Positions 9,785 through 45,722 of a stretch of 64,000 nucleotides of DNA are shown piece after piece; the stretch's first letter is position 1; every line of letters begins with the position of its first letter. The position numbers and the translations under genes are program-made. Below the pieces are notes generated by a model. It saw nothing but the letters and a program-made list of their open reading frames with translations, had not been told where the DNA came from and did no database searches. Source of the DNA: Octopus vulgaris (Eukaryota); contig OX597824.1 in NCBI GenBank assembly GCA_951406725.2, positions 29,016,001 to 29,080,000 of the forward strand, read 5' to 3'.

Positions 9785-10931
9785 TGTTTCTTTATTAGCC
9801 ACACAGGGCTGCACACAGATAGAACAAATTACAAGGTAGAGCTTTTCTTTTGGGGTAAAAAAAGGGGGGTTGGTTTTCGATCAAAAGGGATCGTAAAAGG
9901 AGAGAAAGAGGACAAAAAAGGGGGGGTTAAAAAAAAGGGGGAGAGGAAAAAAATTTGATCAATAGGGATCGTTATCACAGAAATGTCAATATGAAGTGTA
10001 AAGGGGAGGACAGGTGAGGTTTACCCGTGGAAAGAAAAGCCTACGGAAAAGACCACGGTAACCTCGGTCAATGAAGTCACATGTTATATTTCTTTTTTTT
10101 TTTTTTGCAAATAAGCAACTCTCTGTATTAATTTTTACGGTTCATAGAATCATAGTCAAGGTGGCTTCGTCATTCATACGTGCCATCCTTGCTACATTCA
10201 CCCATCTTTTTTTAAAACATTCACTAGACAAAACTTGCCTCTCTACTCTCACTTTTCTCTTCAAGTGATACTTGAAGAAGTTGATGAGAGATTGACCAGA
10301 GAGGAAAGTGTTTGTCTCTAATCCTTTCAGGCGCGTCCACCAGATACATTCTTTCGCCATAGCCACAAGTATGATAAAAATAGCTCTTCCTTCCCGTTTG
10401 AAGGAAGGAGGCGTGACGATATTAACGATAGACTCGGCTGATAAACCGACACGTCCCACACGTGACTGCAGTCGTTCGACATAAGCCCACAGGTCGGAAA
10501 TTGCTGGACACTGCACGATTGCGTGCAGAGCGGTTTCGTCGCTCTGCCCGCATCTCGGGCAGGTCGGCCCCGTGTTTCTCGAGCCATGCCTATAGAGCTT
10601 ATCCCGAACGGGTAGCGCTTCTCGGTAGCACCGCCAGGCCAGGGATCTCTGGAAGTTGTCCATAGATCCCGGGCCGAAAGTCGTTTGAAACAGGCGGGTC
10701 AGGTATTCCTCGTCGACGCCCAGGTTTGCCCCGAGATCGTCGTCGTACCTCCCCTCCACTAATCCCCTATAGAATGCTTTGGTTGTGTTGAAGTCACTCA
10801 AGGTCGACTCGGGACGGTAGAGTTGCTTGAGAGCAACGCGACACTCGCGGTGCCATTCGCCCTTCCTCGGCCTCTTTTTGATCCACGACTGCAGTTCGGT
10901 CATGGAGACGAGTTGCGGGAATGCGTGCCAT
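9785..10931 (-). mobile_element. 5'-truncated Tx1/L1-clade LINE (ORF2 C-terminus plus 3' UTR), inserted in (GATA)n inside an older SINE-B
   Basis: ORF 10142-10903 carries a zf-RVT-type motif; 3' UTR ends aataaagaaacat; (GATA)n on both flanks; SINE-B halves at about 9545-9700 and 11017-11180. Confidence 0.85.
10142..10930 (-). CDS. Tx1/L1-type ORF2 C-terminal fragment (zinc-binding region downstream of RT), 5'-truncated
   Basis: LAWRCYREALPVRDKL...TCPRCGQSDETALHAIVQC matches the CxxC...HxxxxC motif of L1/Tx1 ORF2 C-termini. The frame is uninterrupted up to the truncation point. Confidence 0.8.
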   Translation of the reverse strand, partial: WHAFPQLVSMTELQSWIKKRPRKGEWHRECRVALKQLYRPESTLSDFNTTKAFYRGLVEGRYDDDLGANLGVDEEYLTRLFQTTFGPGSMDNFQRSLAWRCYREALPVRDKLYRHGSRNTGPTCPRCGQSDETALHAIVQCPAISDLWAYVERLQSRVGRVGLSAESIVNIVTPPSFKREGRAIFIILVAMAKECIWWTRLKGLETNTFLSGQSLINFFKYHLKRKVRVERQVLSSECFKKRWVNVARMARMNDEATLTMIL

Positions 10932-11354
10932 GGATAGATAGATAGATAGATAGATAGATAGATAGATAGATAGATAGATAGATAGATAGATAGATATATA
11001 TGGGTGTGTGTGTGTGTACGACGAGCTTCTTTCAGTTAGCCGTCTACTAAGTCCACTTTGAAGGATTTGGTGGGCCCGAGGCTACAATAAAAGAAACTTG
11101 CCTAAGGTGCTATGCAGTGGGACTACACACAGAACCATGTGATTGTGAAGCAAACTTATTACCATCCAGCCATACCAGTGTATCTTATATTAATTATATT
11201 ACTTTTAAATATAGAACGTCTCTATACAATTCTCAATTTAGGTTTTCTACTGTGCAGCTACAGGTAAAATACAGGTAAAAACGGTGAAGTTACCTTCTAG
11301 AGTGATACCTTCTCTTAAGGACAGTTTTCCCCTTTTCCATGTCGTATAAATTCC

Positions 11355-43701: not shown

Positions 43702-45722
43702 TCTGACGTGTTCGGACGTGTTTTTTTTGGCTGCTTCAAATGTCACGTGTTGCCACGTGAAATATTGAACTTTGAACTTTTTGGACGACGACAGGTAGGA
43801 CGTTTTATATTTTTAGGGGCTTAGTGAGGTTTATTGCTTGCTTTTAATGTCTTTAGCATTTAATGTTATTTAGCATTAATATTTTTTAGCGGGTAATAGA
43901 CTTCACTTTGCTCCAGATATATTTTTTCTGCCTGTTGTCGAGTTTAAAGTCTCACTTTTTAGTGAGAATTGTGTTTTTTGAGGAGGCGTAGCCCCTCCTC
44001 AAAATATTGATTCAATTTGGATATACCAGGAGGCACCAGGGATATTCGAGGACTGTTTTTTTTTGGGAAGCACCAAGAATAACCATGGATTGCTGTTGAC
44101 GCTTGGCCAGGACTACCTTTTCGGCCAAAAAAAAATATTAATTCTTTGCCAAATTTGAACTCTCTTCCTTTCAGCTATCTTTTATTTGAAAACTCTCTGA
44201 ACTGTATTTTTATTGTAATTCTTCGCTTCTATTGTGTTTTCTCTTCTTACTCTTTCTATCATATTTATTTTTACACCTATTGAACTGTTATTGCATTTTG
44301 TTAAAAATGGCAAAAGAACTCATTGTGTGGGAGCTGGAACCTCCCAAAAAGTAATTGAAACAGCTGGAGGATAAGACCGTGGTGTTGAGAACTTATTCAA
44401 AGTCGCTCAACACCATCGCTGTCTTTCCGAAGGCAACAATCATTGACGAGCTGGCAGATTATATGCCAGCCGTGAAATACATTGCACGGGGAGCCAAATA
44501 CGCAACGGTTTGGTTGCTGTTTGACTCCCCTAAAGCAGCTTGCGATTTCGCAAGCAAGCCCATTGAGGGCAAAGAGATTTTGTTTGTCCCTAGTTACAAG
44601 GGAGAAAAATTAATAAGATTATGGATCTGCGGCCTGCCACCCGGCATTGAACCCGAGTGGATAGAAGACTCTATCCGCCGGGGTCTGGGTGGTAGTAGCG
44701 CTAAGATCCTAAATGTTAGGATACAGCCTGCGGCTGATTGGGGGGATCAGGGTCTGCTTTGGCCCTGTGGGCCCAGTCAGCCAAGAGTCTGGTTTTGTCG
44801 GACTTTTTGAGGATGGCCGGGTCCAAGTATCCGGTGATGCTTGAGGGACGCCCCCCCAAGTGTCACCTGTGTTTGGAGACCGGCCACATCAGGAAGAACT
44901 GCCCCAGGGACCAGAGCGGGATCCTGGAGCGGCTGATATCGGAGCCTCTCCCTGCCTCCTCAACGGAGGGAGAGAAACAGACTGAGGAGGAAAAGACTTC
45001 CTCCAAGGGAAAGAGAAAGGTGGGGAGCAATGGCGACCCACCAAGGGACCTGAAAGCTGCGGGAGAGGAGAACCCGGTGCGTGCGGCTCCGGAGCCTCGG
45101 CCTCCCGTGGCCCAAGGCCAGGGGAAAAGGAGAGAAGGGAGAAACGGAGCGCCGCCGGCGGATTGTGATACGCAGACGGCGTCTCCCGAGTCTCCCGGGT
45201 CCTCTCAGGCGGGTGTGCCGCCTGAGGGACAATTTGTGGAAGAATTCGTGCTCCTCTTTTCAAAGGAGGAACGGTGGAGAATACCGTACGCAAAATGAGA
45301 AAGCGAAGACATTGGGAGGGACTCCGGTCCTGCACGGAGGACCCCGAGTGGCTTTCACAGTTGACTGCGGAGGTCGTAGGAAGGGGTAATCTAGGCAGGA
45401 TCGTGGGTTCCTTCCCGGTGGACTCATTCAAGATCATACCTGTGGACCCCGACCTGACCAGCGATTATTGCCTCGATGAGGCAAGAGCGATGGTCGGCCG
45501 GGTTACATAGGCTTTTGCATTGAACATTTATAATATATTGAAAAAGAGGTTCATTGCCTCCTTTAAAATTGTAAACTGTTGTATCTATTGTAAATTTTGA
45601 ACAATGTTTTAGAGAAGCGAAAGTCTCCCATCACCATCTTCATCCATCACCATCATGCATTAATGTTTTTGTCCAGCCTGCAGCTACTCTTTGTGCTGCC
45701 CTAGTGGCAAATTTTTGAAATA
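43702..45722 (+). mobile_element. ORF1-only non-autonomous non-LTR retroelement (HAL1-like, probably Tx1/L1-derived), apparently full length with 16-bp TSD
   Basis: TSD aagtagctcgctaacc (43686-43701) / aagtagcttgctaacc (45723-45738). It has a 5' UTR of about 600 bp, one GC-rich coding region, an AT-rich 3' UTR of about 210 bp and a terminal stem-loop. No RT or endonuclease sequence is visible. Confidence 0.8.
44307..45510 (+). pseudogene. Disrupted ORF1-like protein (about 400 aa) with a CCHC zinc knuckle and an RRM-like N-terminal region
   Basis: aaaATGG at 44307 gives MAKELIVWELEPPKK, then an in-frame stop at 44352-44354 before ORF 44355-44810. A frameshift near the G-run at about 44740 leads into ...VMLEGRPPKCHLCLETGHIRKNCP (CX2CX4HX4C). 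A probable second shift near 45280 ends at TAG 45510. Confidence 0.75.

Follow-up and report, generated by a model that had tools for sequence, protein, structure and literature searches.

Analysis of a 64,000-nucleotide stretch of the Octopus vulgaris genome (assembly GCA_951406725.2, contig OX597824.1, positions 29,016,001 to 29,080,000 of the forward strand; hereafter the window), together with genome-wide sampling of related copies, indicated that long interspersed nuclear elements (LINEs) of the L1 clade, non-autonomous elements that carry open reading frame 1 (ORF1) without ORF2, and a short interspersed nuclear element (SINE) termed SINE-A share a predicted, covarying hairpin at their 3' ends. 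The preferred reading, to which a probability of about 0.62 is assigned, is that this hairpin serves as a template signal for the ORF2 protein (ORF2p) of many LINE families, and that insertion targets are set separately in each family. A first-pass annotation of the window had proposed a covarying stem-loop common to one LINE, one ORF1-only element and two SINE-A tails; an arm-swap test upheld this proposal, and the hairpin is more general than was seen there. The names 'SINE-B' and 'site A/B', and the letters A to P given to families, are working labels of this analysis.

The window was scanned on both strands for 4-bp Watson-Crick stems around the loop motif given in the first-pass annotation. 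Ten stems matched, two of them in AT-rich background and eight at LINE, ORF1-only or SINE-A ends. The eight comprise the five stem-loops already named, whose letters, coordinates and strands were all as reported, two more copies of tail 2 (19344 and 50245) and, at 32730-32742, a tail of a third type. The features concerned are listed below by window position.

9785-10930, minus strand: 5'-truncated LINE copy of family A, L1-clade (Tx1-like), containing the C-terminal part of ORF2 and the 3' untranslated region (UTR), identified by a zf-RVT match.
9797-9810, minus strand: terminal hairpin of this LINE, with a 4-bp stem and a 6-nt loop, abutting the poly(A)-signal hexamer (scan and folding ensemble).
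20751-20957, plus strand: tail-1 unit of SINE-A that meets the following SINE-A copy at head site A, a recurrent junction.
20955-21165, plus strand: SINE-A with tail 2, hairpin at 21127-21139.
31822-32045, minus strand: SINE-A with tail 2, hairpin at 31841-31853.
32711-32925, minus strand: SINE-A with the third tail type, missed in the first-pass annotation, hairpin at 32730-32742.
41314-41543, minus strand: SINE-A with tail 1, hairpin at 41324-41336, flanked by a 16-bp duplication.
43686-43701, plus strand: 5' copy of the 16-bp target-site duplication of the ORF1-only element, in the head of SINE-B (one mismatch over 16 bp).
43702-45722, plus strand: ORF1-only non-autonomous element with a broken ORF1; family copies are 74-90% identical.
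44355-44810 and 44738-45298, plus strand: ORF1 pieces of this element, with a weak zinc-knuckle match.
45697-45709, plus strand: terminal stem-loop of this element, with complementary arms, predicted to be out-competed (scan and folding ensemble).
45723-45870, plus strand: 3' copy of the duplication (45723-45738) and the rest of the interrupted SINE-B, whose end is approximate.

Stem pair probabilities in the ViennaRNA ensemble were 0.79-0.98 for the LINE, 0.81-1.0 for tail 2a and, depending on context, 0.48-0.86 for tail 2b and 0.14-0.96 for tail 1; pairing in tail 3 was likewise context-dependent. In the window copy of the ORF1-only element, the four stem pairs had a probability of 0.0, and an upstream hairpin competes with them. 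The wider likeness claimed between the LINE and tail 1 was reproduced over 38 of 50 aligned columns, with a score of 40, the 95th percentile of shuffled sequences being 24. The loop motif described as conserved holds for the five named stems but fails across families, in which loops are 4-7 nt long and mainly a final purine-U is retained. The copies at 19344 and 50245 were considered as a tail-2 subfamily and rejected as such, their double stem change being absent among 100 listed tail-2 copies.

In order to examine the hairpin across LINE families, a zf-RVT search was carried out that gave 150 places, 90 of which were retrieved, and 33 distinct 3' ends were hand-picked, including those of families A and B and ends with a weak or no stem. 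The ends were aligned with MAFFT on sequence alone, and clades were taken from the tree. For the arm-swap test, ends were split at a nearly invariant U column, and loop length was equally free for real and swapped arms. A stem of at least four pairs was found just before the poly(A)-signal hexamer in 26 of the 33 ends, compared with 157/890 cross-clade chimeras, 165/2091 upstream UTR positions and 1090/9900 shuffles. The summed stem length was 128, against 82 ± 6.7 over 20,000 permutations (maximum 110). The stems span GC-rich 4-mers to AU-rich 7-mers with 16 distinct 3' arms, and one pair has been exchanged in both bases in close relatives of family P and, likewise, in the ORF1-only-type end L087. 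By the arm-swap test, the stem-loop is conserved with compensatory changes, which is one mark of stringent LINE/SINE pairs. The shared end architecture consists of a U-rich motif, the hairpin and the poly(A)-signal hexamer, with no A-tail; runs of A near the end did not exceed six in any of the 33 ends.

The window LINE belongs to the L1 group in the broad sense, with an apurinic/apyrimidinic endonuclease (APE)-type domain, a reverse transcriptase (RT) and a C-terminal zinc-binding domain. The near-full family A copy L061 encodes the endonuclease (PF03372), RT (PF00078) and zf-RVT (PF13966) domains within 1128 aa, and the best solved-structure match of its protein was human L1 ORF2p (E 1e-53), with R2 at 1e-18; no Pfam match was found for the L061 ORF1. 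The only named close homolog of the LINE protein, 62-68% identical, was from Argonauta hians, and none of the homologs returned bears a Tx1 name. The Tx1 label, taken over from the first-pass annotation, is putative. Target-sequence preference in many families, a Tx1 trait, was found in families A, F and B, and family C is mostly not site-specific. The window copy of family A is flanked by TATC repeats on both sides, and 29 of 30 family A copies run into TATC repeats, with such repeats on the 5' side as well in L001, L010 and L029; family F is followed by ATT repeats in 4/4 copies. Among the best 40 of 4201 candidates in the 2.8-Gb genome, the 39 other copies of family A are 97-98% identical to the window copy, and the hairpin arms are unchanged in 28 of the 30 copies displayed. 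Young families carry intact ORF2, with frames of 1125-1148 aa.

The ORF1-only family is HAL1-like: it is multicopy (2164 candidates, of which the best 40 were scored), has ORF1 without ORF2, and shows fixed ends and a target-site duplication. A putative CCHC zinc knuckle in its ORF1 (PF00098), a Tx1 trait, had an E-value of 0.007, short of the cut-off, and a homologous stretch is present in families A and B. All 33 of the 3' ends inspected, in 30 loci, open with the identical site sequence, beyond which lies SINE-B in 25, another copy of the family in six (one counted twice through overlapping loci) and another insert in two. Exact junctions at this site number 570 genome-wide, and the first 30 of them included 16 ORF1-only-like ends, seven ORF2-bearing ends and seven without assignment. 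Three of the seven ORF2 loci, when extended (L193-L195), proved to be full-length 5.4-kb LINEs, designated family B, which start in the SINE-B head, are 97.8-98.6% identical to one another and have an ORF2 that is 51-64% identical to that of family A. Because the insertion site in SINE-B is the same, family B is the likely driver of the window ORF1-only element. No blastn match was found between this element and full-length family B copies, and its protein is 30-32% identical to the family B ORF1 and 20-24% identical to that of family A. A second ORF1-only lineage was indicated by ORF1 homology about 1-1.4 kb upstream in 6 of 11 ends with tail-2 arms that were extended by 7 kb. Copies of this lineage (L290-L313) occupy two recurrent insertion sites in another repeat, which by eye we take to be Penelope-like. 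The SINE-B head 5' of the window ORF1-only element (43640-43701) holds a short internal duplication, as does that at L056.

SINE-A is short, non-coding and of very high copy number, with a target-site duplication; exact matches to its tails numbered 49,205 and 4,466 genome-wide. ARAGORN found no transfer RNA (tRNA) gene in it, and an Rfam search of window positions 41290-45900 gave no tRNA match and nothing relevant; by eye, the head appears tRNA-like. An unbiased sample of 400 kb, taken at round coordinates, contained 102 body matches: 38 with tail 1, 23 with tail 2, 19 with tail 3, 12 with other ends, nine truncated at the 3' end and one dropped at the end of a stretch. Thus, the presence of several tails on one body, previously noted for two, was extended to three. 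Tail age was taken as divergence from the class majority in copies with enough body, in place of body identity, which is biased toward tail 1 as the query. The divergence was 5.3% for tail 1 (n=35), 16.7% for tail 2 (n=23) and 17.3% for tail 3 (n=14), the latter two values possibly inflated by hidden subfamilies. Tails 2 and 3 therefore appear older than tail 1, and this order fits the tail replacement that had been suggested. SINE-A copies with tail 1 form head-to-tail arrays with a 184-bp period, in which the next unit begins at one of two fixed head positions (L103-L132; window 20751-21165, 18975-19389, 1649-2005 and 35580-35982). In the 400-kb sample, 14 of 38 tail-1 copies were followed by the SINE-A head at a fixed offset (13 at site B, one at site A), and seven others open with the first 3-5 bases of that head site and then diverge.

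The possible donors of the tails were compared by scoring SINE-A tails against 38 ends. Tail 1 scored 54-70 against a null of 24, and the 3' end of the SINE is accordingly homologous to LINE 3' ends. The top donor score was that of L295 (70), an end lacking ORF2, followed by families C and G (54-60), D and B. Tail 1 and family C are identical in 42 of 48 aligned columns. Family C is young, with a median identity of 98.1% in a sample biased to good Pfam scores, and 2 of its 29 ends fall precisely on SINE-A head site A (the query itself is one of the two, hence 1/28 independent); six further ends open with the first bases of site A, so that family C has a weak preference for the SINE-A head and is not confined there. 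Judged by tail, age and insertion site together, the best candidate for the tail-1 partner, though not a proven one, is family C or an unsampled family closely related to it. Among 112 exact matches to tail 1 without the SINE body, none of the 30 inspected had ORF2 upstream; a search for LINE-type ends at two SINE-A head sites, with a pattern that requires one UTR motif, gave 47 matches, one of them clearly a LINE; and in the Pfam-picked sample the SINE-A head followed 0 of 80 assigned LINE ends.

A search for tail-2 arms preceded by a LINE-type motif yielded 35 matches, and 25 of the 30 inspected were non-SINE ends; none of the 11 such ends extended by 7 kb had ORF2. Another end with tail-2 arms, L306, is preceded by 46 aa of ORF2, and its relatives L338-L340, probably one duplicated event with one stem mismatch, have a long ORF2; in more distant relatives, one stem pair is swapped in both bases. 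Therefore, of the autonomous LINE ending in tail 2 that the first-pass annotation had anticipated, an ORF2-bearing end with tail-2 arms does exist, but the match is short, scoring 25-32 against a null of 21-22. The best match of tail 3 was the window ORF1-only end, at 29 against a null of 22. The donors of tails 2 and 3 would thus be older lineages with tail-2-type and B-type ends.

Recurrent flanking sequences were also observed in other LINE families. Members of families D and M (L244, L265, L271, L272, L276, L280 and L286) have the same downstream sequence in several loci, which reflects a target in common or else the duplication of a block. Subgroups of family H with AU-rich stems (L221, L231, L234, L230, L285, L232, L237, L223 and L229) each have recurrent 3' flanks, which suggest further repeat-specific targets, and TC-type repeats follow the end in 3/3 copies of family K2 (L270, L274 and L284). 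Young LINE copies that are tandemly stacked about 5.4 kb apart, as well as near-identical blocks with one duplication site common to two different elements, were seen at C2 (73046133-73068136, genome G000) and on C17 (L316-L319 and L360-L365).

The proposed mechanism builds on target-primed reverse transcription of the L1 type, which is well established. The endonuclease of each family would fix the insertion site, ORF2p would bind the folded 3' end of the RNA, and the last few RNA bases would pair with the nicked target. The passengers, namely ORF1-only elements and SINE-A, would move by carrying a LINE-type hairpin tail. Recognition by these LINEs would be stringent, and the passengers would be copied by virtue of tails borrowed from several families, not one.

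A number of observations weigh against the hairpin being a template signal. With one end per clade (seven clades), the arm-swap test gave a modest median p of 0.025 and a 90th percentile of 0.12. RNAalifold found no consensus pairs on the plain MAFFT alignment of 37 ends, and a fixed-column count on the same alignment gave 46.5% paired, which equals the shuffle level, the columns not having followed the arms; both nulls arise because differences in loop length (4-7 nt) break the register, and the covariation signal emerges only when loop length is variable. Fewer than four pairs were found in 7/33 ends, some of which are single and possibly mutated copies, and fold stability was ordinary (median z -0.54, with 11/33 below -1). 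The stem probability was 0.0 in 5/5 ends of the window ORF1-only subfamily and exceeded 0.5 in 15/30 ends at the ORF1-only site. By eye, the 100 listed of 6,216 tail-2 copies showed one-sided stem variation only. No sampled LINE matches full-length tail 1, the best score being the 70 of 128 possible reached by an end without ORF2; donor matches for tails 2 and 3 are short, with scores of 29-32 against a null of 21-22; and no matching LINE was found for site B, the commonest site of tail-1 self-insertion.

Alternatively, the hairpin may be real but serve 3'-end formation, not template choice, which we regard as unlikely. A lower stem would then hide the hexamer and suppress polyadenylation, and read-through target bases would prime the next insertion. 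The pairing of the upstream U-rich motif with the hexamer is consistent with this: a median of 5.3 pairs was expected for native ends, compared with 3.2 when the left arm was shuffled and 2.4 when an upstream segment was used, with native values higher in 29/33 and 28/33 ends, respectively. The lack of A-tails in all 33 ends and the fixed-offset insertion of tail-1 copies into the SINE-A head point in the same direction. However, the 33 ends are related, and the sequence of the lower stem is conserved on either side; its pairing could therefore be a by-product, and we treat it as a lead and not as evidence of covariation. Moreover, a SINE transcribed by RNA polymerase III has no evident need for an RNA polymerase II element, yet the hairpin is present in three of its tails, and the A-rich end lies further from the stem in family B and the ORF1-only element.

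A second alternative, conceivable but improbable, is that recognition is relaxed, that SINE-A gained LINE ends by template switching and that the hairpin of the passengers is inherited baggage. The absence of recurring compensatory change within tail 2, the predicted failure of the stem to form in the window ORF1-only subfamily and the partial match of the tails to several families would agree with this possibility. Nevertheless, the arms remain complementary, with differing letters, in all three successful tails of SINE-A and in both lineages of ORF1-only elements, tails 2 and 3 retain little of the donor beyond the stem-loop and its flank, and there is no poly(A) that could be recognized instead. 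The model of the first-pass annotation, in which the RT of the TATC-associated window LINE alone drives all three tiers, is highly improbable and already contradicted by the target data, since, despite the alignment of family A with tail 1 and a few tail-1 copies ending in TATC- or TA-type repeats, family A is associated with TATC repeats, another autonomous family occupies the fixed SINE-B site of the ORF1-only element, and family A ranks 17th-20th of 38 as a source of tail 1 (16-19 other ends match better) and 9th-34th of 38, at or below the null, for tails 2 and 3.

Extending the reading of the hairpin as a template signal, we tentatively suggest a broader scenario, itself more doubtful than the reading it extends: an animal L1-clade radiation with no use for poly(A), in which all families would read one fold by shape and passengers would switch drivers, the lower stem would hide the poly(A) signal and read-through bases would guide insertion, and one SINE body would have acquired its tails successively from three lineages, of which the youngest would also home into its own head.

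One further element in the window lies outside this system. Positions 55557-56612 (minus strand) contain the 3' part of a different non-long terminal repeat element with a weak zf-RVT match, adjoining TAA repeats; by eye it resembles the restriction-like-endonuclease type, and its end is unlike the tails studied.

Octopus SINEs were reportedly studied by Ohshima and Okada in 1994. The comparisons that follow draw on excerpts of the cited articles. The closest known pairs are monocot LINE1-1_ZM with ZmSINE2/3 and Chlamydomonas L1-1_CR with SINEX-3_CR (PMC3472496, PMC3747384), in which the last 45-80 nt of an L1-clade LINE are shared with tRNA SINEs and fold into a hairpin whose stem varies in its letters, with compensatory changes, around a conserved loop and beside a conserved flank. 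In contrast to the octopus ends, those of L1-1_CR and of the majority of plant L1 families consist of poly(A); the known pairs are plant or algal, whereas the octopus is an animal with many families of distinct targets, ORF1-only passengers and three tails. Table 1 of PMC3747384 contains no animal L1/Tx1 tail pair. In crocodilian Tx1-Mar with SINEU (PMC4494074), Tx1 families likewise target another transposon, passengers share the target, different families mobilize different passengers and copies are tandemly stacked. There, however, the target is Mariner, the heads are derived from small nuclear RNA, and the link was made by targets, ages and 5' heads, while in the octopus SINE heads and microsatellites are among the targets, and what connects the elements is a structured 3' tail held in common.

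The octopus ORF1-only element resembles HAL1, HeT-A and Ag-Sponge (PMC5786205) in having ORF1 only, a target-site duplication and membership of the L1 group. Unlike elements of the HAL1 type, it is site-specific in a SINE head, gave no nucleotide match to the co-targeting LINE and is about 31% identical to it in ORF1, and the latter two features suggest an old independent lineage. One body with variable tails, read as a change of partner, and compensatory changes in L2/CR1 stem-loops are also known from SINE superfamilies (PMC4824008); the partners there are L2 and CR1, whereas in the octopus the SINE would have changed partners among the L1-clade families of a single genome. In Octopus vulgaris, 13 L1-Tx1 families with recent activity have been described, together with SINEs that are for the most part unclassified (PMC13282606). 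The portions of the literature covered by our search contained no description of Tx1-tailed SINEs, the hairpin or SINE-head targeting in octopus, and Repbase may already name the families.

An ancestral specific 3' recognition in the L1 clade, relaxed in mammals and some plants, has been argued from three plant and algal pairs (PMC3747384, PMC3472496). The octopus offers an animal genome in which stem variants occur naturally by the dozen, young families retain an intact ORF2 and passengers are of two kinds; there, template choice, through the shared hairpin, is separable from target choice, which is family-specific. How an L1-type ORF2p recognizes its template when poly(A) is lacking thereby becomes directly testable.

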